Origin: an uncultured bacterium
GTDB taxonomy: Bacteria > Abyssobacteria > SURF-5
Assembly: GCA_964510165.1 (NCBI GenBank)
Contig: CAZEBC010000025.1
Coordinates: forward strand, 1 to 16,812
DNA length: 16,812 bases
Reading direction: 5' to 3'
Made by a program: the position numbers and the translations under genes. The notes beneath the pieces are model-generated. The model did no database searches. It saw only the letters and a list, made by a program, of their open reading frames with translations, and was not told the origin of the DNA. Of the stretch, positions 1 to 16,525 are shown piece by piece. Each line of letters begins with the position of its first letter. The first letter of the stretch is position 1.

Positions 1-63
1 AGACAGCCCATTTCATCAGCGAAAATCTTGGCAATCTGCGGATAGATGATCTCAGGTTTTCTA

Positions 64-588
64 TCATTGCTTCTGCCGCAGGATGTCCGCCGCCTTCTTG
101 AGGGCGTCCGGGTCGGCGGATGCAAGCAGGCTCTGTATCTCGCGCTTCAGATCGTCCGACTTCTCACTCGGAGGCGGACCGGCCTCGATGCCGAGCTCTC
201 TCTTGACCATGCCGACGAAGTCCTCGGCGCGCACCGGCTTCTCCAGGTATACCTGCGGCCCCTGAATCGTCCGTCCCTCAAGAATCTCCTTCAGATCATG
301 GCTGCCGAGTTCATCGCGGGCGTGCGCGGTCACGATGACCACAGGAATGCGCGCCCACTCCTTATGCTTGCGGAGTTCATACAGAAACTTGACGCCCGAC
401 TTGCGCGGCATCACCAGGTCGCACGAGATAAAGTCGGGAACGCGCTCCTTCATCCTCTGAAGAGCCTCTTCGCCGTTGGTGGCCGTCACCACGTTGAAGC
501 CCGCGTCCTCGAGGGCCGTCTGCAAGAAAAACACCACATCGGGCTCATCATCAACAACCAGAACAGTTTTCTCTGATGGAGTCGCCAT
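64..588 (-). CDS. Response regulator (receiver domain plus short C-terminal extension, no DNA-binding domain)
   Basis: VLVVDDEPD acidic pocket, phospho-acceptor in ISCDLVMP, VTAH, YLEKP. Start placed at ATG 588 (MATPSEK), preceded by AAAGGA RBS. Confidence 0.9.
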   Translation of the reverse strand: MATPSEKTVLVVDDEPDVVFFLQTALEDAGFNVVTATNGEEALQRMKERVPDFISCDLVMPRKSGVKFLYELRKHKEWARIPVVIVTAHARDELGSHDLKEILEGRTIQGPQVYLEKPVRAEDFVGMVKRELGIEAGPPPSEKSDDLKREIQSLLASADPDALKKAADILRQKQ

Positions 589-667
589 TGTCGTTCCTTT
601 CACCGTTTCATGGTGACAGATTGCCGCGCGCGACGCGCGAATCAAATCCCCTCCGCAACACTTCCGG

Positions 668-2476
668 TCAGCCGGTCCCCGCCTCCGCCGTCTGTGTAGG
701 CTGGGGAAGCCTGTCGCGGGGAAAGACTAGCCGGAACAGTGAGCCTTCCCCAGGAGTAGATTCTACCATAATCTTGCCGCCGTGTTCCTGCACGATCTTC
801 CGCGTGAGCAACAGGCCCAGTCCCGTTCCGCCGGTCCCCTTCGTCGTGAAGAAGTTCGTGAACACTTTCTGCTTTATCTCGTAATCCATGCCGGCGCCTT
901 CATCGGCCACCTCGTACACGAGGGAATCCCCTTCCTCCTTGCAGCGCACGGTCACCCTGCACGCCGTTTTCTCGCTCATCTGGCAGGCGTCCAGGGCGTT
1001 GGAAACGAGGTTCGCGAGGCAGGTGTGTATTTCCTCAGCATCGAGCGGGGCAGAAGAGACCGATTCGTCGGTCTCAGCAACCAGGATAATGCCGCCCTGT
1101 CGGGCGCTCTCCTGGTACAGCGACACGATGTCCTGCACGAGGTCGTTGGGGTTGACCACGCTCACGTGGGGAGTCCGGCCCTTCGAGAAATTCAGCAGGT
1201 TCTTCACCAAAGTTGATATCTTGGCGATGTTACGCTTGAGCATATCCCAGCCGACGTCAATGCGGTCTTGCTGATGTTTCTGCAAGCCCGAGTTCACGAC
1301 GTACATGCCACCCTCAAGCCCTGTCAGGATGTTCTTGATCCCGTGCGCCAGCCCGGCCACCGTCTGGCCGACCGCCGCCATCCGCTCGGCCTCTATCTTC
1401 TCGCGTTCGAGTTGCTTTATCTTGCGGAGGTCCTGAAGGAAGATGGCGACCCCGATCGACTTGGAATCCCTTTTCAATGGCACGCCGGAGAAGCGGACCG
1501 GCACCACCTCGCCGTCACTCGCGCAGACCGTGGTGTCCGGCAACACACAGACACCCTGATTGGCCGCCATCGCCTCCTTGAACTCAGGGGGAAACGCCGA
1601 CTCCGGCACATGCTGGCCCATCAGTTCGGTGCTTCGATATTTGAGAATCGATTCGGCGGCAGGATTGAAAATCATGATTCTCTCGTCCGTGCCGAGCGCG
1701 ATGACGCCGTCAACCGAGTTCTCGATCAGGTTCTCACGAAGCGCGTTGGCGAGCGCAAGTTCATCCTCGAGATGGTGCACCTCGGTCATGTCCAGCGCCA
1801 TCTGGATCACGTGGGAAATGGGCTCGCCACGGGATAGCGGCGTGGTGCTCACGATGTAATACGTCTGCTTGCCGTCCTTGCTCACGCCGACGTGCGCGCT
1901 GCTGTGCGAGTGACCGTCCACAAACGTCATCTGCGCCGTGCAGTCCTCGCATTTTTCGCTCCGTCGTTTGTAAATCTCGTAACAATGCTGCCCCGTCGTC
2001 TCGCCGAATGTCTCGCGGAACCGCTCGTTGGCGCGCACTATCCGCAAGTCCCGGTTCAGCACGGCCACGAAGCACGGCACCCGCTCGAACAGAATCTGGT
2101 ATTCCCGCTGGAGCCGCTTGGTCTCGGTGATATCGGTGGACATCTCCACCACGTGCGATATCTTACCGTTCACGTCGTAGATGGGGGCTATGTGCGAGAT
2201 GAAGTATGCGGGCCGCCCCTTTCGGTCGATTCCCTCCTCATCGTTCACTCTCAGCTTGCCGTCCTTGAACGTCTTGGCCGCAGGGCATGCCTCGCACGGC
2301 TTGGTCCTGCTCTTGTACACTTCGTAACACGGCCGACCCTTGCCCTCACCGAACACGTCGGCGAAACTGCGGTTGTTCTCGACAATCGTGTAATTGCGGT
2401 CAATGATGGCTATGTTACACGGGACCCAGTCGAACAACTGGTCGTATAGCCATCGTTGCCAATCAAGGTGATCCAT
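668..2476 (-). CDS. Cytoplasmic multi-PAS sensor histidine kinase (3 PAS + HisKA + HATPase)
   Basis: H-box AGLAHGIKNILTG, N-box NLVSNALDA, G1 DEGAGM, F-box FTNFFTTK, G2 GTGLGL. Three PAS-like repeats; no evident TM helix. Confidence 0.93.
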   Translation of the reverse strand: MDHLDWQRWLYDQLFDWVPCNIAIIDRNYTIVENNRSFADVFGEGKGRPCYEVYKSRTKPCEACPAAKTFKDGKLRVNDEEGIDRKGRPAYFISHIAPIYDVNGKISHVVEMSTDITETKRLQREYQILFERVPCFVAVLNRDLRIVRANERFRETFGETTGQHCYEIYKRRSEKCEDCTAQMTFVDGHSHSSAHVGVSKDGKQTYYIVSTTPLSRGEPISHVIQMALDMTEVHHLEDELALANALRENLIENSVDGVIALGTDERIMIFNPAAESILKYRSTELMGQHVPESAFPPEFKEAMAANQGVCVLPDTTVCASDGEVVPVRFSGVPLKRDSKSIGVAIFLQDLRKIKQLEREKIEAERMAAVGQTVAGLAHGIKNILTGLEGGMYVVNSGLQKHQQDRIDVGWDMLKRNIAKISTLVKNLLNFSKGRTPHVSVVNPNDLVQDIVSLYQESARQGGIILVAETDESVSSAPLDAEEIHTCLANLVSNALDACQMSEKTACRVTVRCKEEGDSLVYEVADEGAGMDYEIKQKVFTNFFTTKGTGGTGLGLLLTRKIVQEHGGKIMVESTPGEGSLFRLVFPRDRLPQPTQTAEAGTG

Positions 2477-2487
2477 TTCAGTACCTC

Positions 2488-2868
2488 TTACGACGTGAGT
2501 CTTTGAATCGCATCTATCAGAACCGCCAGGTCTATCGGCTTCTCGATGTAGCCGTCCGGCTCGCGCCTGTCACCGTTGCTCCCGAATAGCCGGCCGAGTT
2601 CCTGCTGCACGTTCAGCCCGCTGATGATCAGGACGGGGATTCCCTTGAGGGTCTTGTCATCCTTGATCCTCTTGTACAGCGAGCAGCCGGTTTCCTCAGG
2701 CATCAGTATGTCCAGGCACACCAGGTCGGGGCGCTGCGTCCGGACCAGATCGAAGCCGTCGTTGGCGTTGGTCGCCGAGCAGACCTCGAACCCGTTGTCC
2801 TGCAAGACGGAACTCAGGTATGTGACAATATCCTGCTCGTCATCTATAATCGCGATCTTCTTTTTCAT
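2488..2868 (-). CDS. Single-domain response regulator, Rrf1/DivK-like
   Basis: IAIIDDEQD, LDILMPEETG, IISGL, YIEKP. 126 aa, receiver only. It follows Hmc-like genes, as rrf1 does in the Desulfovibrio hmc operon. Confidence 0.9.
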   Translation of the reverse strand: MKKKIAIIDDEQDIVTYLSSVLQDNGFEVCSATNANDGFDLVRTQRPDLVCLDILMPEETGCSLYKRIKDDKTLKGIPVLIISGLNVQQELGRLFGSNGDRREPDGYIEKPIDLAVLIDAIQRLTS

Positions 2869-2896
2869 ATCTCATCAACTGTTCTCTTGTAGTGAC

Positions 2897-4846
2897 TCAT
2901 CCTCTCGAAATCAGTGTCTCCGATTTTGGCTGCGGATAAGGCTCGATGATGGTCAGCATGGACTCATCCAGCCCCTGATGGCATGCCGCGCAGCGCGCAA
3001 GGTCCGGAGCAAGCTCCGCCTTCTCCGTCTGTTTCTGCTTGTGGCATTCGACGCACAGATTATGCATCGCGGTCATGTACCCGGCGGCAAACCCTTCGAG
3101 CTTCTCCTCAGCCTTCACGAAGCTATTTGGCGCCCGCATGTTCTTGTGACATTCCTCGCACTGAGTGACGGTCTGGCGGTTCTTGGATTGTGCCGGGTCG
3201 CGATGACACTCGACGCAACCGCCCTTCTCTTCGAGCTTTCCCCGATGGTATTCGTGATCGAATATGTCGGTCGTCAGGAACATGTCGCGGTGGCATTCGT
3301 TACAGGATGTGTCCTTGTCGAGCGGCTTGTTCATGTGGTGACACATGCCGCAGGATTCCTTGCCGCCGTTCTTCTCCTGATGCATGTCATGATTGAACAG
3401 GACAAACTTGTTGTTGCGGTCACCATCAATGAGGAGCATCTCCTTCTTCTCGCCATTGACGGGATTCTCGCTCGCGCCAGGCTCATACAGCGCGTACACA
3501 AAAAGCAGTCCATCTTCGGCTTTGGTCTCGAGTCCGTCAACGCGACGAGCGCCTTCAACCGGCGTTTGCTCCGGCGTCACTCCTCCTATCGTGTAATCGG
3601 GCATAAGCGCCAACGCAAGGGCGGCGCCTATGACGAAGATCAGCGAGTACACCCGTACCCCCGCCATGTTCGACCAGCCCAGCCTCACTCCGGTCACCGG
3701 GTCGGCCTCCGGAATGTCGTATTTCTCCTGCCTCGCCGCCCTCGGCTCTTCATAGACGTGGAAATTCTCCACGAAGAAGAAGAACGCCAGCCCTGCTGCC
3801 GAGACGATGCCTATGCTGACCGCAAACTCGGTCCAGGACGGGAAGTAGCGCGAGCCGGTCTCGGAAACCGACGCAAGCCCGCTCACATTGATCCGGTTCA
3901 GCACGAAGCCGAGCACGGCCATGCCCGCGCCGGTCGCCAGGCCGCCAATGCTTTCTCGCACCTTCGCCGAGGAAAACAGAAGCGCCGGCACAATCGCGCT
4001 TATCAGCAACTCGAAAATGAACAGGCCGCCTTCCCATGAATCGGCCAGATAATGCAGCTTGCCGGTGACCGCCACATCAACCAGCCGCATTGCGGCGTAC
4101 AACCCGAGCACATATGCCGCCGCCCTGGCAAGCCCTTTGAGCAGGTCGGTTTCCGCATGCTTCTTATATAGCCAGGATGTCACCATGGACTCCGTCATCA
4201 CCATCGTCAGGCCGAGCCCGATCGCCGAGACAAAGAACAATATCGGCAGGATGGGCGAATACCACAATGGATGCGTCCGGTACGGCATGATGAGGAACAG
4301 CGTGCCGAGCGATGACTGATGCAGCGTCGAGAGCATGATCCCCAAAATCACGAGTGGCAGCGTCAGCGCCTTCAATATCTTGTAAAGCGTCTGGAAAATG
4401 GGAATCTGGATGCGTTCAAGCACGACGGGCGCGAATTCGAGCTGGAGCACCGTGAAATACAGCATCACGCACCAGGCAACCTCGAACAGCGCCGAATGAT
4501 GCTGCCAGAAGAACATCGGTCGCCATATGTTCCACGGTATCCCGATGTCGAACATCAAGCCCCCGACGACCGCCGCGTACCCCAAGAACGCGGTCAGCAC
4601 GGCCGGCCTCAGGAACGGCCGATATTTCTCCATATGGAAGATGTAGACGGTCGCCGCGATGACGAAGCCGCCCGCCGCCAAAGCGACGCCTCCGAGCACG
4701 TCAAACCCGATCCACAGCCCCCACGGCGTCATGTCGGTGAGCGCGGTCACCGTTCCAAGTCCCTTAAGGAACCGGAACACGGTCACCGTGGCGGCCACCC
4801 CAACCAGGAACCACAAGATTGCTTTTACAGTCCTGAGTCTAGTCAT
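2897..4846 (-). CDS. NrfD/HybB/HmcC-family integral membrane subunit fused to a C-terminal six-heme cytochrome c3-like domain
   Basis: PWGLWIGFDVLGGVALAAGGF and STLHQSSLG motifs of HybB/HmcC with about 10 TM helices, then one extra TM helix. Six CxxCH motifs (CGMCH, CNECH, CVECH, CEECH, CVECH, CAACH) plus FNHDMH, FDHEYH and AMHNLC class III cytochrome signatures. Confidence 0.9.
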   Translation of the reverse strand: MTRLRTVKAILWFLVGVAATVTVFRFLKGLGTVTALTDMTPWGLWIGFDVLGGVALAAGGFVIAATVYIFHMEKYRPFLRPAVLTAFLGYAAVVGGLMFDIGIPWNIWRPMFFWQHHSALFEVAWCVMLYFTVLQLEFAPVVLERIQIPIFQTLYKILKALTLPLVILGIMLSTLHQSSLGTLFLIMPYRTHPLWYSPILPILFFVSAIGLGLTMVMTESMVTSWLYKKHAETDLLKGLARAAAYVLGLYAAMRLVDVAVTGKLHYLADSWEGGLFIFELLISAIVPALLFSSAKVRESIGGLATGAGMAVLGFVLNRINVSGLASVSETGSRYFPSWTEFAVSIGIVSAAGLAFFFFVENFHVYEEPRAARQEKYDIPEADPVTGVRLGWSNMAGVRVYSLIFVIGAALALALMPDYTIGGVTPEQTPVEGARRVDGLETKAEDGLLFVYALYEPGASENPVNGEKKEMLLIDGDRNNKFVLFNHDMHQEKNGGKESCGMCHHMNKPLDKDTSCNECHRDMFLTTDIFDHEYHRGKLEEKGGCVECHRDPAQSKNRQTVTQCEECHKNMRAPNSFVKAEEKLEGFAAGYMTAMHNLCVECHKQKQTEKAELAPDLARCAACHQGLDESMLTIIEPYPQPKSETLISRG

Positions 4847-5664
4847 TTCTTCGCCTCTGAATTATCTTCGCCTTTGTCGGTCGCCGAGTTCTGTCCGTTG
4901 GAATCGCCCATTGCCTCGGCCTGCAGTTTCATGCGTCGGTCAATGATCCAGTACACGCCGTACATCATGGCGCCCACTCCGATGAATACGCCGGGCACCT
5001 TGTTCAGGAACACCCACGTCTTGTGCGGGAGCGGGTCCTTCTCCAACTCGGGCTTCAGCCCGAGGAAGTCCAGACTGATGTCGGACACATAGAGAACCGA
5101 GGTCCCGCCGACATCATGCTCTCCGTATACCTTGTTGATGTAAAGATCGGGCTTTTCCTCGATTCTTTTGTGGGCTTCGACCAATAGTTCCTCGCGTTCG
5201 CCGTAAATGGTCGCTTTTTCAGGACAGGCTGCGGTGCACGCCGGCTGCTCGAGTTCGCCGCTCTTGATCTTGTCGTAGCACATGACGCACTTGCGCACAT
5301 ACGGAACCGACTGCGCCCAGTCGTAGCGCGGGATGCCGTACGGGCACGCCATCATGCAGTAGCGGCAGCCCATGCATATCTTCGAGTTGTACACGACCGG
5401 CCCCTCAGGCGTCTTGTGCATCGCGCCGACGGGACACACTGACGCGCATGCCGGCTCCAGGCAGTGCCGGCACTGTTTTCGCACGTAGTGTTTCTGCGGG
5501 CGGTTGACGACGGTGGTCCACCGGCTGGCGGACAGGTCATCAATCTTTCTCTGCCACCGCCAGGGCCTGTCGTCTCCCGTCTCGTTGGTCTTCTTGCACG
5601 CGGCCACGCATTCCTCGCAGCCGATGCACTTGGTCACGTCTGTCAGAATGCTCATCTGTTTCAT
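4843..5664 (-). CDS. 4x[4Fe-4S] electron-transfer subunit (HybA/HmcB/FdnH family) with C-terminal TM anchor
   Basis: CIGCEECVAAC, CRHCLEPACASVCP, CMGCRYCMMACP, CVMC...PACTAACP; YGEHDVGGTSVLY; hydrophobic C-terminal helix. ATGA overlaps with both neighbours. Confidence 0.92.
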   Translation of the reverse strand: MKQMSILTDVTKCIGCEECVAACKKTNETGDDRPWRWQRKIDDLSASRWTTVVNRPQKHYVRKQCRHCLEPACASVCPVGAMHKTPEGPVVYNSKICMGCRYCMMACPYGIPRYDWAQSVPYVRKCVMCYDKIKSGELEQPACTAACPEKATIYGEREELLVEAHKRIEEKPDLYINKVYGEHDVGGTSVLYVSDISLDFLGLKPELEKDPLPHKTWVFLNKVPGVFIGVGAMMYGVYWIIDRRMKLQAEAMGDSNGQNSATDKGEDNSEAKK

Positions 5665-6365
5665 ATCGGCACGTTCTCTTTCTTAAGGGCCCTTGCAACG
5701 TCATCGCCCGATTCCGCGGGGAAACGCCAGCCCACTTCCGACACAAGCTGGGTCGCGGGCAACAACACGATGTGGCCGAGCTTGCTGAACGGAATCATGA
5801 CGAATATCACATTGGCGCTCATCACATGAATGAACATCACGAGGTTGTAATCGGCGGGGTTCCAGGCCGGATGCATCGCGAAGAATCCCGTTATGAACGG
5901 AATCACGAGCATCGCCGGAATCACCAGGTCCTGCACGCGGCTGATCCGCCTTGACTCGCGGTTGCTGAGCCGGCCCGCCAATAGCCCGATGGCCGCCGCA
6001 ATCGTCACCAGCGTGAGCGCATCGGCGAGCGCGTGCGGAATCGACGGCCAGGCTATCCCGAGTCCCCGCTCCCACAGCTCGATATGTGGAAGCAGGAAGA
6101 TGGGCGTCAGAATCAGTCCGACATGGAAGACCACCGACATCACGCTGTACACCGGCCGGTTGACTCCCATCTTCTTGAATGGGATAAGCCAATCGATCGT
6201 GGTCTTGAACACCACCTTGTAGGGAATATTCTTATCGCCCGCGCGCCTGATCGCCAGGATGATCTCGACAGCCTCGACGACCACGTTGCGAGCGAGCGCC
6301 AGAACCATCAGCAGGAATGCGAACTTGAACACCGGGCCTCGTGCCCACTCCAACCATTGTTCCAT
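5661..6365 (-). CDS. NarI/DsrM/HmcE-like membrane cytochrome b subunit
   Basis: N-terminal WARGP motif, about 5 TM helices, four candidate heme b histidines (VFHVG, LPHIE, FIHVM, LGHIV), IPFSKLGH motif. Confidence 0.85.
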   Translation of the reverse strand: MEQWLEWARGPVFKFAFLLMVLALARNVVVEAVEIILAIRRAGDKNIPYKVVFKTTIDWLIPFKKMGVNRPVYSVMSVVFHVGLILTPIFLLPHIELWERGLGIAWPSIPHALADALTLVTIAAAIGLLAGRLSNRESRRISRVQDLVIPAMLVIPFITGFFAMHPAWNPADYNLVMFIHVMSANVIFVMIPFSKLGHIVLLPATQLVSEVGWRFPAESGDDVARALKKENVPI

Positions 6366-6369
6366 TGCT

Positions 6370-7752
6370 CTATTCCTTCTCTTCCTCTTCTTCGCCCTTT
6401 GGTCTTATGCCGTAGTATTCGTAGTCAATGGCCTTCAGCACCAGGTCGTGAAGGCCGATCACTTCCATGTCGTGCAGTTCGTTGTCCTCGCACACCTCGC
6501 GAAGCTGCTTCTTGCAGTTGGCGCACGGAGCCACGATGTACTTGGCGCCGGTCCGCTTGAGTTGCTCGGCCTTGACTCTGCCGCCGATGCCGGTGCGGAA
6601 CTTGCGGATTTCGTCTATCGAGACCGTGCCGCCTCCACCGCCGCAGCAGATATTCATCTGGCCGCTCGGGACCATGTCCACGAAATCCTTGCAGATGGCC
6701 TCGAGTATCTCTCGCGGTTGGTTGATTATCCATTTCGAGCGGGCGATGTTGCAGGGGTCGTGATAGGTGACGCGCTCGGGAATGGAGCCTGCCTTGACTT
6801 TCAGCCGGCCTTCCAGGAGCGCCTTGTGCGTGTATTCCATGATGTTGACGACCGGCGGCGCGTCTCTCCCGCCGCAGAACGTCGGGATGAACGCCTTGGC
6901 CGAGCGCGACGCATGGCCGCATTCGCCGATCAGGATTTTCTTCGCTTTGAGGCGCTTCAGTTCTGTCACCTCTTTCCTCACGATGCGGCACAGAAGCGAG
7001 TCGCTGTAAAACAGGCCGTAGTTGATGCCATCATAGTAGCCGGTCCCGATGGTCCATGAGCCGTTGGTGACGTGCATCACGGCGGCGTTTCCCATGAGCG
7101 TGTCAGGCTCAAGCAGGTAGTCGCTGACCGCCGGGAAGAACACGTATTCGGCGCCCTCGACGTCCATCGGGAATTTCGCGGGCAGGTTGTACATCTCGAT
7201 CAACTCTTCCTCGAGGAACTCGCACGTGTCCTTCAAGGCGATCACGGGAATGGCCGACGTGTTGCCGGTCTTGCCCTGTAGCTGCTCGCGCGTCGCGACG
7301 ACGAGCGCCTTGGGGACGATGCCGACCTCGGCGAGAATCCAGCGCGCCAGATGCGTCATGAGGCCGTGGTCAACTCCCATCGGGCACCCGAATTTGCACC
7401 TGCGGCAGGCCGTGCAGCGATACACCGCTTCGGCCATCTCGTCAATGTAGGCATCGGTCAGCGTGAAGCTGTTGTGAAGCCTCGCCCGAATCGTGCCGCC
7501 GAGCGTGAAATACCGTCGGTACACTCTGAACAGCAGTTCCGAACGGTAACACGGCACGTCTCTCGGGTCGCCGCTTTCCAGAAAGACCTGGCAGTTGCAT
7601 CCGCAGCGCGCACATTTGGTGCTTGTGCGGGTGTACGTGTCAAGCGCCAACCCGTAATTTGAATGTTTCAGAATGGCCGCGAACGCTTCCAGGAAACGCC
7701 GCGGCCGTTCTGTCTCATTGTACGGCTCGACATAGTAAGGGTATTTTGCCAT
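6370..7752 (-). CDS. HmcF/DsrK/HdrD-like Fe-S oxidoreductase with CCG domain
   Basis: CTACRRCKFGCP ferredoxin motif, GECGH, YHDPCN, CCGGGGG and APCANC motifs. Confidence 0.9.
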   Translation of the reverse strand: MAKYPYYVEPYNETERPRRFLEAFAAILKHSNYGLALDTYTRTSTKCARCGCNCQVFLESGDPRDVPCYRSELLFRVYRRYFTLGGTIRARLHNSFTLTDAYIDEMAEAVYRCTACRRCKFGCPMGVDHGLMTHLARWILAEVGIVPKALVVATREQLQGKTGNTSAIPVIALKDTCEFLEEELIEMYNLPAKFPMDVEGAEYVFFPAVSDYLLEPDTLMGNAAVMHVTNGSWTIGTGYYDGINYGLFYSDSLLCRIVRKEVTELKRLKAKKILIGECGHASRSAKAFIPTFCGGRDAPPVVNIMEYTHKALLEGRLKVKAGSIPERVTYHDPCNIARSKWIINQPREILEAICKDFVDMVPSGQMNICCGGGGGTVSIDEIRKFRTGIGGRVKAEQLKRTGAKYIVAPCANCKKQLREVCEDNELHDMEVIGLHDLVLKAIDYEYYGIRPKGEEEEEKE

Positions 7753-7810
7753 GATGTGTTCCTGATTTTGACTGGGGTGTTGTCAAACGAGACTTGCGAA
7801 AAGAGTAAGG

Positions 7811-7827
7811 AGCAAGAGGCGGGCCAA
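7811..7827 (-). promoter_or_regulatory. Sigma54 (-24/-12) promoter for the Hmc-like operon
   Basis: Minus strand TTGGCCCGCCTCTTGCT has exact GG-N10-GC spacing, lies about 60 nt upstream of ATG 7752, and sits next to a divergent sigma54 activator gene. Confidence 0.8.
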
Positions 7828-7880
7828 TGCGCTTACCATGCGGCAACACGGCGTTGCGCACCGCTCTAAGCCCATGTCGC

Positions 7881-7893
7881 AAATATATTGAAA
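7881..7893 (-). promoter_or_regulatory. Putative IHF-binding site
   Basis: Minus strand TTTCAATATATTT resembles WATCAANNNNTTR. It lies in an AT-rich patch between the sigma54 promoter and the candidate enhancer. Confidence 0.45.
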
Positions 7894-7983
7894 AACAAGA
7901 CATTAGCCCGCAATGTCGCGGCAACACCGGCCCCTTGCGACGTTGCGATACGCCGTCGTGCTGCCCCCATCATCCCATGCTGT

Positions 7984-8011
7984 CATGTCACATAATTGAG
8001 ACATGTCACAT
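7984..8011. promoter_or_regulatory. Candidate enhancer (UAS) or operator for the sigma54 activator
   Basis: Imperfect palindrome TGTCACATAATTGAGACA (7986-8003) and direct repeat CATGTCACAT at 7984 and 8002, about 160-180 bp upstream of the -24 element. Confidence 0.5.
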
Positions 8012-8019
8012 TACGCATG

Positions 8020-8048
8020 TTGTATTCCTGGAACGGAGATGTTATAAT
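8020..8048 (+). promoter_or_regulatory. Sigma70 promoter of the activator gene
   Basis: TTGTAT-17-TATAAT with extended -10 TG; AGGGGG RBS before ATG 8075. Confidence 0.7.
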
Positions 8049-8074
8049 ATAGGCAAAACATAAGGGGGCTTATC

Positions 8075-9484
8075 ATGGCCCAAGAGAATCAAACACCCCA
8101 GGAATCAACACCCCGATTCACGTTGTTTGATGATGCAAGGAGAAAGATGGCGCAAAAAGAGTTGGACATCAGATTCTTCCCTCTCATCTTTGACACAATC
8201 TCCCACGGTATCTTCACCATTGACTCCGGAGGCCGAATCACCTCGTTCAACCGCATGGCCGAGAAGCTGACCGGTTACACGAGGGAGGAGGCCATCGGCA
8301 AGCAGTGCCACGAAATCTTCAGGGCCGACTTCTGCGAAGTGGAGTGTCCGCTGAAGCGAAGCATCAAGACGCGCGAGCGCAGCGAGGCGGTGGAAGTCAA
8401 CATCATGACGAAGGACGGCAGGCGTTTGCCGATCGCGATTTCGACGTCCGCGCTCGTGGACAAGGAAGGGCGCGTGCTCGGCGGCGTGGAGATGTTCCGC
8501 GACCTTTCGACCGTCACCGAACTTCGCAAGCGACTGGCCGGCACGTACGTCTTCGAGGATATCGTGAGCAAGAGCCCCTCGATGCGGAAGATTTTCGAGG
8601 TGATCCCGCTGGTTGCCAATAGCCAGAGCAACGTGCTCATCGAGGGCGACTCGGGCACGGGCAAGGAACTGGTTGCCCGCGCGATCCACAATATCAGCCT
8701 GCGCCGGCACAAGCCGTTCGTGGCCGTCAACTGTGCGGCGCTGCCCGACCAGTTGCTCGAGTCCGAGCTTTTCGGCTATAAGAAGGGCGCGTTTACGGAC
8801 GCGAAGAAAGACAAGCCGGGCCGCTTCGCGATGGCGGAGGGCGGCACGATCCTGCTGGATGAGATCGGCGACATCTCTTCGGCAATGCAGGTGAAACTTT
8901 TGCGCGTGCTCGAGACCAAGGAATACACACCGCTCGGCTCGAATCAGCCGGTCAAGGCCGACGTGCGCGTGATCGCGAGCACCAACCGGAACCTGGTGCG
9001 CGAGGTGCAGCGCAAGCGGTTCCGCTCGGACCTTTACTTCCGGCTCAACGTGGTCCGCATACAATTGCCGCCGCTGTCGGAGAGGCGCGAGGACATTCCT
9101 CTGCTCGTCAACCACTTCATCGAGCGATTCAACGCGCTGCAGGGGCGGCGCATCGCGAGGTGTTCGGAGCGCGTGATGGCCGCGCTGATGGGGTATCCGT
9201 TCCCCGGCAACGTGCGCGAGCTTGAGAACGCGATCGAGCACGCATTCGTCATCTGCATCGGCGACACGATTCAACTCGAGGACCTGCCGAGCCACATCGT
9301 GGCGTCGGTGACCGACTCGTCCGCAAAGACGAAGGCGCGGATGCTGCCGCTCGATAACGCCGAGGCCGAGACCATCCGCTCGACCTTGAGCAAGCATTTC
9401 GGCAACCGCAACCGCACCGCCGCCGAACTCGGCGTCTCGCGCAATACGCTGTGGCGCAAGATGAAGCGGTACGGCTTAATATAA
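8075..9484 (+). CDS. PAS-domain sigma54-dependent transcriptional activator (PAS-AAA+-Fis HTH)
   Basis: GDSGTGKE Walker A, ESELFG, GAFTDA loop, LLDEIGD Walker B, FRSDLYFRLNV, FPGNVRELEN, C-terminal LGVSRNTLWRKMK HTH. Confidence 0.96.
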   Translation: MAQENQTPQESTPRFTLFDDARRKMAQKELDIRFFPLIFDTISHGIFTIDSGGRITSFNRMAEKLTGYTREEAIGKQCHEIFRADFCEVECPLKRSIKTRERSEAVEVNIMTKDGRRLPIAISTSALVDKEGRVLGGVEMFRDLSTVTELRKRLAGTYVFEDIVSKSPSMRKIFEVIPLVANSQSNVLIEGDSGTGKELVARAIHNISLRRHKPFVAVNCAALPDQLLESELFGYKKGAFTDAKKDKPGRFAMAEGGTILLDEIGDISSAMQVKLLRVLETKEYTPLGSNQPVKADVRVIASTNRNLVREVQRKRFRSDLYFRLNVVRIQLPPLSERREDIPLLVNHFIERFNALQGRRIARCSERVMAALMGYPFPGNVRELENAIEHAFVICIGDTIQLEDLPSHIVASVTDSSAKTKARMLPLDNAEAETIRSTLSKHFGNRNRTAAELGVSRNTLWRKMKRYGLI

Positions 9485-9584
9485 AGGGGGAAAAGGGGAA
9501 AGGGAAAAAGGGGACGTGTTACGTATTTCGTGTTGTGTGTTGCGTGTGGACCCTGAACCCTAAACCCTGAACGCTAAACGTTCT
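9485..9584. repeat. Three abutting heptamer tandem-repeat tracts
   Basis: (AAAGGGG)-like x~4, then CGTGTTA CGTATTT CGTGTTG TGTGTTG CGTGTGG (9515-9549), then ACCCTGA ACCCTAA ACCCTGA ACGCTAA ACGTTCT (9550-9584). Confidence 0.8.
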
Positions 9585-9585
9585 C

Positions 9586-10002
9586 ATGCCTGACTTCAGC
9601 GTAACACCCCCAAAGCAGAAGGCCCTCGAGGATAAGATGGAGCGCCTTGGCATCTTTGAGAAGGACCTGGTCGAGAAGTTCATCCGTTCAGGCGGCCCCG
9701 GCGGGCAGAACGTCAACAAGACCGCGACCGCCGTGTATCTCAAGCATATCCCGACCGGCATTGAGGTCAAGGTGCAGCGTGAGCGCTCGCAGGCACTCAA
9801 CCGGTTCCTCGCGCGGCGGCTCTTGGCCGACAAGATCGAGGCGATGCAAACCCGCGAGAAGACCGACGAGCAGCAGCGCATCGAGAAAATCCGCCGCCAG
9901 AAACGAAAACGCTCGAAGCGCGCGAAAGAGAAAATCCGCCGCCACAAGAAGCTCCAATCCGAGAAGAAGCAACTCCGCTCTGCCGTCGAGCCGGAGGGAT
10001 GA
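9586..10002 (+). CDS. arfB: ArfB/YaeJ-like GGQ peptidyl-tRNA hydrolase (RF-1 domain ribosome rescue factor)
   Basis: FIRSGGPGGQNVNK, HIPTGI, RSQALNR and a highly basic C-terminal tail; 138 aa. Confidence 0.85.
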   Translation: MPDFSVTPPKQKALEDKMERLGIFEKDLVEKFIRSGGPGGQNVNKTATAVYLKHIPTGIEVKVQRERSQALNRFLARRLLADKIEAMQTREKTDEQQRIEKIRRQKRKRSKRAKEKIRRHKKLQSEKKQLRSAVEPEG

Positions 10003-10093
10003 AACCGGTGGAGCCGGGAGGAAAGGTCTTCTTCACCACCAAGGAAACCAAGAATCACCAATATTTGGTGGGCATTCGATTTGGTGGTATCTG

Positions 10094-10122
10094 TTGCCAA
10101 AATGCACACAATGTGATACAAT
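10094..10122 (+). promoter_or_regulatory. Sigma70 promoter of brnT operon, probably giving a leaderless mRNA
   Basis: TTGCCA-17-TACAAT with TG extension; ATG begins 7 nt after the -10 box; CACAATGTG near-palindrome in the spacer. Confidence 0.65.
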
Positions 10123-10128
10123 CCAAGA

Positions 10129-10413
10129 ATGAAGAGGCTTAACTGGAATACGGAGAAAAGCCTGCTGCTCAAGGCGAAGCGGGGAATCGGCTTTGAGGAA
10201 GTGGTTTTCCACATTGCAGGGGGTGACATACTGGATGACTATGAGCATCCAAACCAACAGAAATACGCTGGCCAACGGATAGTCGTGGTTGGCATCAACA
10301 ACCGCGCCTATCTCGTGCCCTATGTCGAGAACAAGGACGAAGTGTTTCTAAAGACAATCATCCCGAGCAGGAAGGCGACTGAAAAATATTTTGGAGAAAG
10401 ACATGAAAACTAG
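10129..10413 (+). CDS. brnT: BrnT-family (DUF497-like) toxin
   Basis: WNTEKSLLLKAKRGIGFEEV, HPNQQKY, LKTIIPSRKAT motifs; overlaps the downstream antitoxin gene. Confidence 0.85.
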   Translation: MKRLNWNTEKSLLLKAKRGIGFEEVVFHIAGGDILDDYEHPNQQKYAGQRIVVVGINNRAYLVPYVENKDEVFLKTIIPSRKATEKYFGERHEN

Positions 10414-10681
10414 ACTGACAAAAGAAGAGGAGGAAATCCTTGAGAGCTTTGAGAAAGGCGAATGGATTCCCGCGAAGAACCTTTCGAGCAGGAAGAAACA
10501 TCTGATGAAGTACGCGCGGGACACGTTGAGAAAGGACAAGAGGCTCAACATCCGGATTTCCGAACGAGACCTTCTCGAGTTGAAGAAGATGGCGGTGAGG
10601 GAAGGATTGCCGTATCAGACGTTTGTGTCCAGCATACTTCATAAGTTCGTGAACGGGAGACTGGTCGAGCAAAAGAAATAG
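10403..10681 (+). CDS. BrnA/CopG-like RHH antitoxin
   Basis: EEEEILESFEKGEW N-terminus and RLNIRIS...EGLPYQTFVSSILHKF RHH region; GGAG RBS before ATG 10403. Confidence 0.85.
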   Translation: MKTRLTKEEEEILESFEKGEWIPAKNLSSRKKHLMKYARDTLRKDKRLNIRISERDLLELKKMAVREGLPYQTFVSSILHKFVNGRLVEQKK

Positions 10682-10697
10682 CGTCCTGCTGCCGTCC

Positions 10698-10926
10698 AAA
10701 ACTGTGGGTTGAAGCTAAAACACATCTTCCCAAACTCCTCGAACGGGTGGCAAGAGGGGAGCGAATAACGATTACCAAACACAGCGTTCCCGTGGCCACC
10801 CTGCAACCCGCAGACTCCGCGAAGAAGCCCGCGCGCGAAACTATCGCGCAGTTGAAGCGGTTTCGCGCCGGGCGCCGGCGTGGCGGCCTGTCGATACAGA
10901 GCATGATCAAAGAGGGAAGACGGTGA
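10698..10926 (+). pseudogene. Phd/YefM-family antitoxin, start lost and frameshifted
   Basis: KTVG in one frame, then EAKTHLPKLLERVARGERITITKHSVPVA...MIKEGRR* in another; no ATG or RBS; TGATG overlap with vapC. Confidence 0.8.
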
Positions 10927-11270
10927 TGTCCACACGATTCGTCGTCGATAATTCGGTCGTGATGGCGTGGTGTTTCGAGGATGAACCAGCCGGTTACGCC
11001 GAGGCCGTGCTCGAAACGCTCGAGACCTGCGAAGCGGTTGTGCCCGCAATATGGCCGCTGGAGGTCGGCAATGTTCTGCTGGCGGCGGAACGGAAGAAAC
11101 GGTTGAGCGAGGCCGATGTTTTCCGCTTTCTCGCGCTGCTATCCGACCTGCCGATTACGGTGGAACAGGAATTCCCGTAAAGAACGCTCAAAGAGATCGT
11201 TGCGCTCGCGCGGGAACAACAGCTTGCGACCTATGACGCTTCCTATCTGGACCTCGCGATGCGGTCGGGA
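10926..11270 (+). pseudogene. vapC: VapC/PIN toxin with in-frame nonsense codon and truncated C-terminus
   Basis: FVVDNSVVMAW, VPAIWPLEVGNVL. TAA at 11178-11180 is followed in frame by RTLKEIVALAREQQLATYDASYLDLAMRSG; the final PIN strand (LPxATxD) is missing. Confidence 0.85.
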
Positions 11271-11494
11271 GCAGTAGTGAAGATAACCAACACAATAACT
11301 GGATCGGTGGAAGAGTCTGCCGCCGTTTCTACGGATCCCGGGAAGACGGGCAACACGTTCAGATATGATCCCGCGGCTCAGCAATACATCTACAACTGGT
11401 CCACGAAGGGACTTACTGCAGGCACATATCAGCTTCGCATCAGCCTTGATGATGGGACTACGCACAAGTGAATTTGTCTCTGCGGACAAAATAA
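11271..11494 (+). pseudogene. C-terminal fragment of a PxKF-domain-like secreted/surface protein
   Basis: FRYDPAAQQYIYNWSTKGLTAGTYQLRISLDDGTTH followed, after a frameshift, by VNLSLRTK*. No N-terminus. Confidence 0.6.
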
Positions 11495-11759
11495 CAAGTC
11501 TTCGAATATTGGGGGCGAGGAGTCGTCCATGGTGGCGGCTTCTCTCTTTTCCGAGGGAATCCATCGCGAGTTCAGGAAAGAAGCACTCATTTTGTTGAAA
11601 GTTTGACTCATTCATGTGCTCCCAATAAGCGAAGGTGTCGCCGGAACTCTTCACTTATCCCCATCTGCGCAAGAGTCAAGATTCCGTTTTCAACTCAATT
11701 TCAAGGTCTGAGGTCTTTATCCCCATTGCCCACTCCGTCGCGATTTTCAGTGGCTTCAC

Positions 11760-11783
11760 GGGCGCAATGAATTGCGCCCCTAC
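11760..11783 (-). repeat. GTAG-type REP-like palindrome
   Basis: Minus strand GTAG-GGGCGCAATTCATTGCGCCC. Confidence 0.75.
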
Positions 11784-11871
11784 AAGGATTCTTGATTGCG
11801 GCCGTGGCCGCGCTGTGTCCTCCGCGTCTCGGCGGTTAAATCCCGCTTGGGTTCCCACATTGGTTTTGGAT

Positions 11872-11930
11872 TTGACGCTTTGACGTTATGATGTTATAAT
11901 GTCATAGTGAGAGAAGGGAGATGACATTAT
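11872..11930 (+). promoter_or_regulatory. Sigma70 promoter with operator repeats for the RHH/RelE operon
   Basis: TTGACG-17-TATAAT; four 8-bp tandem units (11873-11904); perfect inverted repeat ATAATGTCAT (11896) / ATGACATTAT (11921). Confidence 0.8.
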
Positions 11931-12162
11931 GGCGACTGAGAGCAAACGCGCTACCGTTTACTTCGATCCCGATTTGCACAAGGCGTTGCGGCTGAAATCG
12001 GTCGAGACCTCCCGGTCGGTGTCTGACCTCGTGAACGAGGCCGTCCGAGAAGCGCTGCTGGAAGACGCGGAGGACCTTGCCGCCTTTGAGGAAAGGGCCG
12101 GCGAGCCCCTGATCAGTTACGAGGAAGCGTTGAAGAGGCTGAGAAAAGATGGCCGCCTATAG
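11929..12162 (+). CDS. CopG/RHH-family antitoxin
   Basis: KRATVYFDPDLHKALRLKS...SVSDLVNEAV RHH fold and acidic C-terminus; overlaps relE. Confidence 0.88.
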   Translation: MATESKRATVYFDPDLHKALRLKSVETSRSVSDLVNEAVREALLEDAEDLAAFEERAGEPLISYEEALKRLRKDGRL

Positions 12163-12406
12163 GCTCTTCTTCAAGAAGTCAGTGCTGAAAGACCTGAGCG
12201 CGATTCCGAAGAGGGACCTAAAGAGAATCCTCAGCCGAATCGAGGCCCTCGCCGAAGAACCTCGCCCCGCTGGATGCGAAAAACTCTCAGGACATGAAAA
12301 GTATCGGCTGCGCCAGGGAAGATACCGTATCTTGTATTCCATTCAGGACGATGAACTGACGGTGTGGATGGTGAGGGTCGCACACCGGAAGGACGTCCAT
12401 CGCTGA
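12149..12406 (+). CDS. relE: RelE/ParE-family toxin
   Basis: YRLFFKKSVLKDL, PRPAGCEKLSG, YRLRQGRYRILY, VAHRKDVHR. Confidence 0.92.
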   Translation: MAAYRLFFKKSVLKDLSAIPKRDLKRILSRIEALAEEPRPAGCEKLSGHEKYRLRQGRYRILYSIQDDELTVWMVRVAHRKDVHR

Positions 12407-12604
12407 TACATGCACAGTCCGGCAGCGGTGAGAAGAGCTATCCACTAAGCGCACGAAACACCAATTTTCCCCTGTTCTGATCGGATTATATGATTCCCTT
12501 TCCCGTCCTGCATCGCGCTTCACATCGAAACCGTTCAGCGCTTTTCTTTCTTGCCCGAATCAGGCGGACTGCCGAACAGTTGCGCCGTGACGGAATTCAA
12601 GACT

Positions 12605-13876
12605 TCACGATGAGCGATGCAGGGTTTCGGGGATTTTTCGGATGAGGAAGAGTCCCGCCAGAAGGAAGACCACGATGATGGAGAAGAGGATGTTGTATCC
12701 TGTTCCCGAGGCTGCGCCGAAGCCGTCAACTATGGGGCCGAGCGTGAGCGGAGTGACCACCCAGGGAATGAGCATCGTGTATTGCATGAGGCCGATGTAC
12801 TTGCTGGCCTCTTCGGCGGGGATCATGTCGGACACCAGAGTCCAGTACATGCTCAGGTAGGCGCCGTTGCCGAGGCCGAACAGCAGGCCGCTCAGATACA
12901 GGGTCGCGTAGCCGCGCGGGGCCAGCAGGAAGTTGACCATACAGGCAAGCTGCAAGAGGCACGCGACCAGGAAAACGCGCCTGCGCCCGAAGCGGTCTGC
13001 GAGAAACCCCGCCGCCAGAGACGAAGGGATGCCCGCCCCCATCGCGATGAGGACGGTTTTTCCGAAGGTGACGTTGAAGTTTTCGCGGTCGATCTGGTCC
13101 TTGACGAAGTAAAGCAGGAAGCACGTCATCGCAACGACCCCCATATACGTGAGTATGTTGCAGGCGGCGAGCCATCCGAGGCCGCGTGTCTTCTCAAGCC
13201 TGGGAAGGTAAACCTCCCTCCATGAGGGAAGGCTCCGGCTGGACTCGCGCTCGGAGGGCTTCTCACGAATCCTGAGGGCGACCCAGAGATTGGCCAGGAT
13301 ATTTGCGGTTATGGCTATCAATGCGAGCAGAAACATGCGAGTTCCGATGAGCCGGGACGCGACCGCGTGAGCGAGCATGATTCCAAGAGTATTGGTGAGA
13401 TTGCTCAGGCCGGAGATGCGGCCGCGTCGCTCCAGCGGAACCAGGTCGCGGATAAGCGCGCGGTTGGGAAACCAGAGCGCGAGCGCCCCGTGCATCAATA
13501 CCACCAGGCTCAGGAGAAGAATGTAGGCGTGACAGCGAGTGACCAGGAGAAGCAATATGCTCATGATGAGGGCCGCCGTGAGAAAGAAGGGGCGGCGCCT
13601 TCCGAATCGAGAGGTCGCCCCGTCGCTCAGCGCGCCGAACAGGGGAATCAGGATTATCACAAAGAGATTCGAAAGGCTTGTGATGAGTCCGAGGCGCGCG
13701 TTCTTGACGGAATCGTCCACCATCGTGAGAAGGGCGTTCGGGACCATGTAGGACGTTGCGGTCGTCCAGCAAAACGCCCAGCCGAGGTAGTTGACGCTCA
13801 ACTGCATCAGGTACGGCCACGTCTCGGGCTTTGGGGGAGATGCGCTGGTTGTTGTCTGCTGTATGGTCAGGGACAT
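12605..13876 (-). CDS. MFS transporter (12 TM; sugar/glycoside-cation symporter-like)
   Basis: GALSDGATSRFGRRRPF and GFLADRFGRRR loop motifs, about 12 hydrophobic helices. Start uncertain (ATG 13876 chosen). Confidence 0.88.
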   Translation of the reverse strand: MSLTIQQTTTSASPPKPETWPYLMQLSVNYLGWAFCWTTATSYMVPNALLTMVDDSVKNARLGLITSLSNLFVIILIPLFGALSDGATSRFGRRRPFFLTAALIMSILLLLVTRCHAYILLLSLVVLMHGALALWFPNRALIRDLVPLERRGRISGLSNLTNTLGIMLAHAVASRLIGTRMFLLALIAITANILANLWVALRIREKPSERESSRSLPSWREVYLPRLEKTRGLGWLAACNILTYMGVVAMTCFLLYFVKDQIDRENFNVTFGKTVLIAMGAGIPSSLAAGFLADRFGRRRVFLVACLLQLACMVNFLLAPRGYATLYLSGLLFGLGNGAYLSMYWTLVSDMIPAEEASKYIGLMQYTMLIPWVVTPLTLGPIVDGFGAASGTGYNILFSIIVVFLLAGLFLIRKIPETLHRSS

Positions 13877-13975
13877 GTTGAGGTACCGCTTGCTGTTGCT
13901 CTTGCTGCCTACATGGCGTCCATTATAAACCGATTTCGCATGTTTGTTCCAGAGAGCGTTGATTGTCATAGGAAC

Positions 13976-13999
13976 CGTGCAAATGAATTTGCACGTACA
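13976..13999. repeat. REP-like palindrome with AATGAATT core
   Basis: CGTGCAAATGAATTTGCACG followed by TACA. Confidence 0.6.
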
Positions 14000-14182
14000 G
14001 CCCTTCGTTCCATGTTTTCATGGTGAGAGATGCAGGAAATTTCTTGCGGTTGTGCACGTAGAGCCTTGCATTTGACCTGGGGTTACGGGCCTTGTCGAAA
14101 GGCCGGAACGGCGGGCTCTGGTATTCATAACATTTGTTTGTACAACAGGTTAGCCGCACTTCTCTCCTTCCGCGTTCGTTCA

Positions 14183-14198
14183 TGGCATGGTTCTTGTT
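14183..14198 (+). promoter_or_regulatory. Possible sigma54 promoter
   Basis: TGGCATGGTTCTTGTT has a good -24 element, but -12 reads GT instead of GC. IHF-like CAACAGGTTA at about 14143 and palindrome GCAGGAAATTTCTTGC at 14032-14047. Confidence 0.45.
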
Positions 14199-14243
14199 CT
14201 CCTTTTGAATAACAGCGGGACTGATATGAATGGAGGGGTAGCC

Positions 14244-14480
14244 ATGAGCGACAAGACAAAGAACACCCTGAAAAAGATATCGGTCGGCACGGCGCTTGGA
14301 GCGCCGGTAGGTTTCGCGATTTTCACCAATGGGAGTTTAGCGATGGACCCGAGTTCGGCCTTTGCCTTTACCGTGGGAGTGAGCCTGTTCTGCATGTTTA
14401 TCATAATGGGCGCGGCTCTCATGGGAGCGTACAGGTTCCTGAGAAACGTGGGCCTGTTCAAGGGGCATTACTACTACTAG
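14244..14480 (+). CDS. Small hypothetical membrane protein (78 aa, about 2 TM)
   Basis: Strong GGAGG RBS before ATG 14244; two hydrophobic segments. Confidence 0.65.
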   Translation: MSDKTKNTLKKISVGTALGAPVGFAIFTNGSLAMDPSSAFAFTVGVSLFCMFIIMGAALMGAYRFLRNVGLFKGHYYY

Positions 14481-14492
14481 TTTGACGTCGTC

Positions 14493-14551
14493 CGGGCGTG
14501 CGAATGAATTCGCGTCCGCAACATGGATTTCCGCTTTGACGGGAATGACGG
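14493..14551. repeat. Two adjacent REP-like elements
   Basis: GCGAATGAATTCGC palindrome (14500-14513), then TGGATTTCCGCTTTGACGGGAATGACG, a degenerate CGTC-type REP resembling GTCATTCCCGCGAAGGCGGGAATCCA. Confidence 0.65.
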
Positions 14552-16511: not shown

Positions 16512-16525
16512 GCAGAAATTTCCTA

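Follow-up and report, generated by a model that had tools for sequence, protein, structure and literature searches.

A fusion of an NrfD-type membrane subunit with a six-heme class III cytochrome c domain in a Dsr/Hmc-like gene module of uncultured bacteria

Membrane subunits of the NrfD type are seen in the field as cofactor-free anchors that work with separate redox partners. The closest described systems are the DsrMKJOP complex, the HmcABCDEF complex of Desulfovibrio and, for the membrane subunit itself, the alternative complex III subunits ActC and ActF. Cryo-electron microscopy of DsrMKJOP, including that of Archaeoglobus fulgidus, is described in the available text of a preprint (bioRxiv 10.64898/2026.08.25.746951), according to which DsrP is the site of quinol oxidation, at a distance of less than 8 Å from a cluster of DsrO; electrons pass from DsrO to the membrane-anchored DsrJ, the hemes of DsrM, DsrK and finally a cytoplasmic substrate; protons are released outside; and DsrJ, a triheme cytochrome with a Cys/His-ligated heme, touches the periplasmic face of DsrM. 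As far as the available text of a family review goes, the NrfD-like subunits with ten helices (HybB, DsrP, QrcD, NhcC and ActC/F) have both termini in the cytoplasm, and the eight-helix PsrC has both outside (PMC8076601). Here we describe a gene of an uncultured bacterium (GTDB lineage Abyssobacteria; SURF-5) in which such a membrane subunit and a multiheme cytochrome c are a single polypeptide. The gene lies in a stretch of 16,812 nucleotides (nt), all of which was analyzed and is called the window below (contig CAZEBC010000025.1 of assembly GCA_964510165.1, positions 1 to 16,812).

The gene occupies positions 2897..4846 of the minus strand, on which all its parts are given here, and encodes 649 amino acids plus a stop, with no internal stop; the calculated mass of the apoprotein is 72.0 kDa. 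Residues 1-365 (3752..4846) form the NrfD-type core, delimited by hydropathy, loop charges, AlphaFold2 (AF2) helices and Foldseek, with ten transmembrane helices and an N-terminus predicted to be cytoplasmic. A loop of residues 366-396 (3659..3751), also predicted to be cytoplasmic, carries five Lys or Arg residues; in the AF2 model it lacked secondary structure, and its predicted local distance difference test score (pLDDT) stayed below 50. It leads to an eleventh transmembrane helix, VRVYSLIFVIGAALALALM (residues 397-415; 3602..3658), with a Kyte-Doolittle peak of 2.19 and an AF2 helix at 397-413; the segment YSLIFVIGAALALALM, by which a first-pass annotation of this DNA had named the helix, covers residues 400-415 (nt 3602-3649). 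A beta-rich linker (residues 416-483; 3398..3601), in which both AF2 models placed four strands at low confidence, connects helix 11 to a six-heme class III cytochrome c domain (residues 484-623; 2978..3397) with six CxxCH motifs and six further invariant His. In Pfam, the core matched NrfD (PF03916) over residues 35-319 with an E-value of 1.1e-14 and 55.3 bits, above the gathering cut-off of 25.8, and the heme part matched Cytochrom_CIII (PF02085) over residues 477-567 with 2.8e-14 and 53.7 bits, above the cut-off of 22.9, so that the core scores as a member of the NrfD/PsrC family and the heme domain as a class III cytochrome c. Further Pfam matches in the heme part were to Cytochrome_C7 and, at residues 542-624, to Cytochrom_c3_2. 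The closest NCBIfam model of the fusion protein was HmcC (NF045714; 329 bits, cut-off 550), and HybB (NF008133) gave 269.7 bits with a cut-off of 450, both below the equivalog level.

The six CxxCH motifs, the two F-x-H-x-x-H motifs and the AMHNLC motif that the first-pass annotation had listed, together with the extent of the heme region, were indeed all found as described. The CxxCH motifs lie at C499, C515, C544, C563, C598 and C619 (nt 2978-3352), the F-x-H-x-x-H motifs consist of F484/H486/H489 and F529/H531/H534, and AMHNLC spans residues 593-598 (A593, H595, C598). The C-terminal 234 amino acids contain 12 His and 12 Cys, every Cys being inside one of the six CxxCH motifs; when this segment was shuffled 200,000 times with its composition preserved, the maximum was two CxxCH, reached 49 times, and no shuffle (0/200,000) reached three. 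The six motifs and six other His, namely H486, H489, H504, H531, H534 and H595, were invariant in 15/15 full-length relatives, and the same residues were invariant in 13/13 diverse C-terminal domains of 30-69% identity, while no further His outside the CxxCH motifs was invariant in either alignment. Six CxxCH together with exactly six additional invariant His are enough for six bis-His hemes, and this is the heme complement that we infer for the C-terminal domain from its sequence. Moreover, since the domain has no spare Cys, it should not contain a DsrJ-like Cys/His heme.

The order of these residues (F-x-H-x-x-H...CxxCHH...CxxCH...H...CxxCH...CxxCH) fits the heme-ligand pattern of cytochrome c3. 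The likeness to tetraheme c3 and triheme c7 extends over hemes 1-4, which aligned to c3 2bq4 (profile positions 87-177 to c3 residues 20-115), and over the segment matched by Cytochrom_CIII; the present domain differs in having two further hemes in a stretch that resembles domain I of HmcA, a second F-x-H-x-x-H inside the unit, a membrane tether and the beta-rich region in front. In profile comparison with the PDB, the best match of the heme domain was the 16-heme HmcA 1z1n (3e-15), followed by HmcA 2e84 (7.5e-11) and c3 2bq4 (1.6e-6), and the stretch of hemes 4-6 aligned to HmcA residues 43-120. The first-pass annotation had called the segment a reduced HmcA-like domain, which holds to the extent that HmcA is its best solved relative; it does not hold at the level of the family, since the similarity is weak, the HmcA equivalog model (NCBIfam NF045713) giving 35.2 bits against a cut-off of 400, with 6 hemes versus 16. 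The linker, which is shortened in some members of the diverse C-terminal domain alignment, has R434, L471, D474 and V482 invariant in the 15 relatives, and in helix 11 of the same sequences Y400 is invariant and S401 and F404 are nearly so.

Hydropathy and AF2 secondary structure agreed on ten helices before residue 365 and an eleventh at 397-413/415, in agreement with the first-pass annotation. The AF2 models were used for secondary structure and for the fold match of the NrfD part only. In the latter comparison, made by Foldseek with a low-confidence model, the best matches of the core were ActC/ActF of alternative complex III (E 3e-7 to 5e-4, TMt 0.52-0.61) and then PsrC; the structures listed were 6btm_C (E 3.2e-7, TMt 0.58), 8k9e_C, 6lod_C, 6f0k_C and 2vpw_C, with sequence identities of 11-20%. 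A profile of the fusion family found no NrfD-type chain among the PDB sequences. The layout of ten helices with both termini cytoplasmic is shared with ActC/ActF, as these are described in the available text of PMC8076601; the difference from those subunits and from PsrC is that the cytochromes of those complexes, ActA and ActE, are separate subunits. The core has a single Cys (C126), and its most conserved parts are the loops on the periplasmic side, such as the invariant H176-T182. On sequence and model, we judged it to have the NrfD/PsrC fold (8-10 helices, two four-helix bundles, probably cofactor-free), and the best reading of the core is a quinone-interacting, cofactor-free subunit of the NrfD type.

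The sum of Lys and Arg in the loops was 20 on the inner side (3, 3, 3, 4, 2, 5) versus 6 on the outer side (1, 1, 1, 1, 2), with the N-terminus on the positive side. This charge bias, the rule that ten-helix NrfD subunits keep both termini inside, and the presence of an eleventh helix together lead to a C-terminal domain in the periplasm. The periplasm is also the only compartment in which c-type hemes are attached, a requirement that puts the domain outside as well and thus agrees with the topology. The fused hemes are therefore predicted to be periplasmic, as the first-pass annotation had supposed, and not cytoplasmic. It is to be noted that an NrfD gene followed by a gene for a signal-anchored cytochrome, if simply fused, would yield exactly this topology; helix 11 may most simply be what remains of the signal-anchor of a cytochrome that formerly had its own gene downstream of the NrfD gene. 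The membrane anchor of DsrJ is an uncleaved signal peptide, and helix 11 would be its counterpart, holding the hemes in the periplasm, tethered above the NrfD subunit.

The fusion was found to be widespread. A word-indexed protein-cluster search with residues 400-649 as query returned 22 other clusters of 37-88% identity, and 20 of these had Pfam matches to NrfD as well as to class III cytochrome, the other two being fragments on contigs of less than 3 kb. An exhaustive phmmer search of 1.84 billion representatives (50% identity) gave 2686 matches at E <= 1e-3; among the best 150 of the 2686, at least two CxxCH were present in 69 and exactly six in 47, and the remaining 81 were plain HmcC/HybB-type proteins of about 380 amino acids. 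In addition, a scan of one genome per species with two peptide patterns taken from five closer sequences, which misses distant members, located at least 24 loci, all of them in metagenome-assembled genomes and spread over about ten phyla, with the labels Poribacteria, Pseudomonadota, Myxococcales, Latescibacterota, Gemmatimonadota, Planctomycetota, Fibrobacteraceae, Ignavibacteria, Bacteroidetes, Hyphomicrobiales and Acidobacteriota. Among relatives that bear a name, the closest (88-92% identity) carry the label Candidatus Abyssubacteria. NrfD and heme parts share a single open reading frame (ORF) in 23/24 loci, the exception (L023) being broken by frameshifts, and these loci together with the 20/22 clusters rule out an assembly artefact, a possibility that had been raised at the outset. 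No split form, i.e., no stand-alone heme domain, was found among proteins shorter than 356 amino acids, in a search that reaches close relatives only; of five short matches, four sequences were fragments that start inside conserved sequence, and the fifth (81 amino acids) lies on a contig of 902 bases.

A FastTree phylogeny of the NrfD domain was built from 130 rows, after removal of fragments lacking coverage of query positions 30-345. The window protein fell in a clade (support 95; starred in the tree) of 53 rows, 45 with six hemes, five with another heme count and three with none, the latter probably being truncated entries. A clade in which almost all rows bear hemes, and 45 bear six, fits a single origin of the six-heme NrfD fusion. 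Outside the clade, other NrfD proteins of the HmcC/HybB type were found fused to one, two or four c7-type triheme units, or to a cytochrome of the DmsE-like decaheme or the octaheme tetrathionate reductase type (1096 amino acids); examples are P0064, P0075, P0096, P0120, P0153, P0068 and others. These independent fusions to c7-type, decaheme and octaheme cytochromes indicate that the joining of NrfD to cytochromes is a recurrent theme. Some other representatives (P0082, P0125, P0129, P0076, P0108) carry 150-390 extra residues before the NrfD domain and no hemes, and may be fusions of NrfD with an iron-sulfur (Fe-S) subunit.

The first-pass annotation had asked whether the architecture was already characterised. 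No description of an NrfD-c-type cytochrome fusion was found in the full-text literature, a body that leaves most subscription journals out, and the available text of the 2021 review of the NrfD family contains neither 'fused' nor 'fusion' (PMC8076601). Database names for the protein are generic: 'Ni/Fe-hydrogenase cytochrome b subunit', 'HybB-like' and 'NrfD/PsrC family'. The hydrogenase-2 context expected of HybB was absent, since neither the window nor the flanking regions of 23 loci contained hydrogenase genes, and the first of these names is a systematic misannotation that the assignment as a six-heme fusion corrects.

Three genes, here called F, E and B, lie upstream of the fusion gene (C) on the same strand, their stops and starts overlapping or abutting. 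F (6370..7752, minus strand) is a cytoplasmic Fe-S protein with a CCG domain (Pfam CCG) that resembles DsrK, TmcB and HmcF, with NCBIfam scores of 256, 202 and 201 bits; the Cys of its two ferredoxin-type groups (C47, C50, C54, C68, C113, C116, C119, C123) and of its CCG domain (C334, C369, C370, C410, C413) were conserved in 19/19 sequences. E (5661..6365, minus strand) is a membrane di-heme b protein like TmcC (130.5 bits), HmcE (121 bits) and DsrM, in which H81, H94, H180 and H198, the number needed for two hemes b, were conserved in at least 20 of 21 sequences. B (4843..5664, minus strand) resembles HmcB (244.5 bits in NCBIfam), then HybA, with FdnH as its best solved relative; it has four [4Fe-4S] sites, with 16 invariant Cys, the number for four such clusters, in 15/15 loci, and a C-terminal membrane helix. 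In the window, the stop of E overlaps the start of B (ATGA), which argues for one complex. The order F-E-B-C::cytochrome was kept in 24/24 loci as far as the contigs reach, all four genes being present in 22 of them, while L018 starts inside B and L023 is the frameshifted locus. In L020, unrelated TrmO_N and DUF6125 ORFs (2894-3903, plus strand) are inserted between F and E.

By its parts, the module corresponds to DsrMKJOP, with F for DsrK, E for DsrM, B for DsrO, the core for DsrP and the fused domain for DsrJ. It differs in that the cytochrome is fused to NrfD, with six predicted bis-His hemes versus three in DsrJ, and in that B lacks a signal for twin-arginine translocation (Tat). DsrK was the top NCBIfam match of F (256 of the 400 bits of the cut-off), DsrO scored 93.8 of 200 on B, and no match of the core to DsrP was found in NCBIfam at E <= 0.01. 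The likeness to HmcABCDEF is equally evident: B, the core, E and F matched the models of HmcB, HmcC, HmcE and HmcF (244.5 of 420, 329 of 550, 121 of 275 and 201 of 750 bits, respectively), HmcA is the best solved relative of the heme domain, and B is tail-anchored as HmcB is in the available text of PMC10924467. On the other hand, there are four genes (F-E-B-C) versus six, with no HmcD-like ORF between them, and 6 hemes versus 16, fused to the HmcC-type core, and B lacks the signal-peptide region of HmcB. Judged by sequence, the module is thus a relative of the Dsr, Hmc, Tmc, Hyb and Qrc complexes and a member of none. Among 82 flanking ORFs of 23 loci, no hydrogenase, formate dehydrogenase or molybdoenzyme was found, nor any conserved gene for a soluble cytochrome or an outer-membrane conduit, the neighbors varying from locus to locus; likewise, no dsrAB or dsrC was present in the 16.8-kb window or in the locus flanks, the rest of the genomes being outside this scope. 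In one genome of the Bacteroidetes/Chlorobi group (L024), the stretch directly downstream of the fusion (7940-11906, plus strand) encodes a multiheme Cytochrome_cB protein, a cytochrome b561, two sulfur-transport proteins of the YeeE/YedE type and a rhodanese domain, which hints at sulfur chemistry in that lineage.

Subunit B has no N-terminal signal peptide. Its first cluster Cys is residue 13 in 15/15 loci, its ATG overlaps the stop of E, the models of HmcB, HybA, DsrO and NrfC match it only from profile position about 37-42 onward (37 for HmcB), and a signal peptide was lacking in 119/120 best homologues. At its other end, R243 and R244 directly after the membrane helix were invariant in 15/15 loci, and by the positive-inside rule such a pair points to a cytoplasmic C-terminus and an Fe-S domain outside. 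This is the pattern of known Tat-dependent tail-anchored proteins, as seen in the C-tail sequences available in PMC10924467. The available text of that paper also describes pairs of a signal-less HybA-like protein and HybB/NrfD, similar to the present one in having an Fe-S subunit without signal and with a conserved C-tail, and thought to be exported with a Tat-signal Fe-Fe hydrogenase encoded next door (PMC10924467). No such hydrogenase was found here in the window or among the 82 ORFs of 23 loci, and no other Tat-signal partner was seen among those ORFs, nor a carrier in the window. F was considered as the Tat carrier and rejected, its N-terminal Arg pair not being conserved. Three readings of the placement of B remain: a carrier encoded elsewhere, a B that stays inside with the hemes replacing it, and an undescribed export.

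Taken together, the fusion protein is probably, though by no means certainly, the quinone-interacting NrfD component of a Dsr/Hmc-type redox complex that spans the membrane and has four subunits, with the equivalent of the DsrJ/HmcA cytochrome fused to its C-terminus. This interpretation is supported by the domains and motifs of the fusion and their conservation, by the conserved co-linearity of F-E-B-C, by the retention of the cofactor ligands in the partner subunits, by the fold matches of the core, and by the NCBIfam ranking, in which DsrK comes first for F, HmcB for B, HmcC for the core and TmcC/HmcE for E. By analogy with DsrMKJOP, menaquinol would be oxidised at a periplasm-side pocket of the NrfD core, and electrons would pass from the Fe-S subunit B to the hemes c of the fusion, then through the hemes b in E to the clusters in F, where the non-cubane cluster would hand them to a sulfur or disulfide substrate in the cytoplasm. 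Protons released outside would then make the system a redox loop, and the opposite electron direction would also be possible on the same wire. By the same analogy, the fused domain may be an internal wire like DsrJ rather than an entry port like HmcA.

Several points weigh against this assignment. B has no export signal and its route to the periplasm is unexplained; if B stays inside, the proposed path from B to the hemes c fails. The curated equivalog cut-offs of the Hmc, Dsr, Tmc, Hyb and Qrc models were reached by no subunit, and the Cys/His heme of DsrJ has no counterpart here. Most carriers belong to phyla not known as sulfate reducers, in contrast to DsrMKJOP, and Abyssubacteria have been described, in the available text of PMC6121073, as having sat and aprAB and lacking dsrAB; together, these make a DsrC-type substrate doubtful. 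Electron direction and substrate are, indeed, purely inferred from the Dsr analogy. The AF2 models were poor, with a mean pLDDT of 55.6 for the whole protein and 56.3 for the C-terminal domain, so that heme geometry and domain packing could not be read from them, and a fold search with the low-confidence C-terminal model gave 0 matches at E <= 0.001. A complex prediction of the heme domain (with four hemes) and the Fe-S domain of B, run with no controls, returned a score of 0.00 and a mark of 0.32 and weighs neither way.

Other roles of the cytochrome have to be considered on the same evidence. The domain could be an import port of the kind proposed for Hmc, serving mainly as the place where soluble donors of the periplasm (for example c3-type cytochromes, hydrogenase or formate dehydrogenase) dock and deliver electrons, which would move inward to the quinone pool and the cytoplasmic CCG subunit. 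Such a role would suit the HmcA matches (1z1n and 2e84, with hemes 4-6 on HmcA 43-120) and the ranking of HmcB and HmcC as top models for B and the NrfD core, respectively, and Hmc is itself presented, in the available text of PMC10924467, as a set of six redox proteins that connects hydrogen with sulfate. Since, however, the HmcA model gave only 35 of 400 bits, and genes for hydrogenase, formate dehydrogenase or soluble cytochromes are not conserved among the 82 ORFs of 23 loci, we regard it as unlikely; it is also to be noted that an internal, DsrJ-like wire would look the same and that the two roles are compatible. Alternatively, the cytochrome might have replaced the Fe-S partner, in which case B would be cytoplasmic and tail-anchored and would work with F, and the fused hemes, seated on the periplasmic side of the NrfD core, would exchange electrons directly with the quinone site. 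The missing signal peptide (15/15 loci and 119/120 homologues), the lack of a Tat-signal partner among the 82 ORFs and the non-conserved Arg pair of F would all follow naturally, but R243 R244 fits an outside Fe-S domain as in the Tat-dependent tail-anchored proteins, signal-less HybA-like proteins provide a precedent for export with a Tat-signal hydrogenase (both from the available text of PMC10924467), and the Fe-S subunit is periplasmic in every solved NrfD complex covered by the accessible parts of PMC8076601 and 10.64898/2026.08.25.746951. This makes the replacement reading quite improbable.

Still less probable, and in our view very improbable, is that B and the fusion protein form a quinol dehydrogenase for periplasmic or extracellular acceptors, with E and F as a separate DsrMK-like unit that is merely co-transcribed. 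In Melioribacter, MBNT15 and Methanoperedenaceae, a role as quinol:acceptor reductases has been proposed for pairs of NrfCD-like proteins with separate multiheme cytochromes (available texts of PMC3534657, PMC9386147 and PMC7327174), and the fusions of other NrfD clades to c7-type, DmsE-like decaheme and octaheme tetrathionate reductase-type cytochromes would agree with such a module; however, the linkage and order of F, E, B and C are the same in all loci whose contigs extend that far, the E stop and B start overlap (ATGA), and no conserved outer-membrane conduit genes were found nearby.

The operon appears to have its own regulators. The site TGGCCCGCCTCTTGCT (7811..7826, minus strand), 59 nt upstream of the ATG of F, resembles a sigma-54 promoter and is the sole one-mismatch match to TGGCAC-N5-TTGCW in the window; the total of sigma-54-like matches, 7 versus 8.4 expected, is not above chance, and thus only its position and orientation favor it. 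Upstream of the site, two direct copies of ATGTGACATG, 18 nt apart (7984-8011, minus strand), could be activator binding sites. A divergent gene (8075..9484, plus strand) encodes a sigma-54 activator with a PAS domain (Pfam Sigma54_activat at 3.3e-69, PAS and HTH_8); a homologue lies beside the cluster in 16/24 loci, with C78, C87 and C91 kept in 15/16 aligned loci. On the other side of the fusion gene, Pfam identified a response regulator (2488-2868), a soluble PAS histidine kinase (668-2476) and another response regulator (64-645), all on the minus strand. The PAS histidine kinase accompanies the cluster in 23/24 loci, together with receiver proteins, and in its PAS domains has the Cys triads C50/C61/C64 and C165/C176/C179 (C-x10-C-x2-C); the triads of kinase and activator are conserved in nearly all loci. 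This conservation suggests a redox sensor that serves this operon specifically and works through a metal, Fe-S or thiols. Past the regulators, three Gemmatimonadota loci encode a large protein with PPDK_N, PEP-utilising mobile and receiver domains (L011 9397-13586, L012 10384-14378, L015 12873-14648, minus strand), adjoined in L011 and L012 by an Alph_Pro_TM protein. The rest of the window contains a major facilitator superfamily transporter, a hydrolase, a URO-D-like ORF and a ParE-like ORF, the last being a small ORF (12149-12406, plus strand) that matched the ParE toxin family at 1.7e-11.

A bolder synthesis, tentative and rather unlikely as a whole, would see here an undescribed, laterally spread respiratory complex, a 'mini-Dsr' of four genes, in bacteria that are mostly not known as sulfate reducers. 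Its cytochrome would be welded to the membrane subunit, a signal-less B, with no carrier from the operon, would reach the periplasm by an unrecognised export that depends, for example, on the Arg pair of the C-tail, or else would take an unprecedented cytoplasmic placement for an HmcB-type protein, and a redox or sulfur signal, perceived by the Cys-triad PAS/sigma-54 system, would switch the complex on.

The placement of B makes it a clean test case for a signal-less Fe-S subunit. At the level of organisms, the locus brings a Dsr/Hmc-like complex to Gemmatimonadota, Poribacteria, Latescibacterota, Myxococcales, Planctomycetota, Ignavibacteria and others. For the NrfD family, in place of an anchor with separate partners, there is now a large and conserved clade with a covalently attached cytochrome, and the fusion offers a compact, self-contained model for the exit of electrons from, or their entry to, the quinone site of NrfD.

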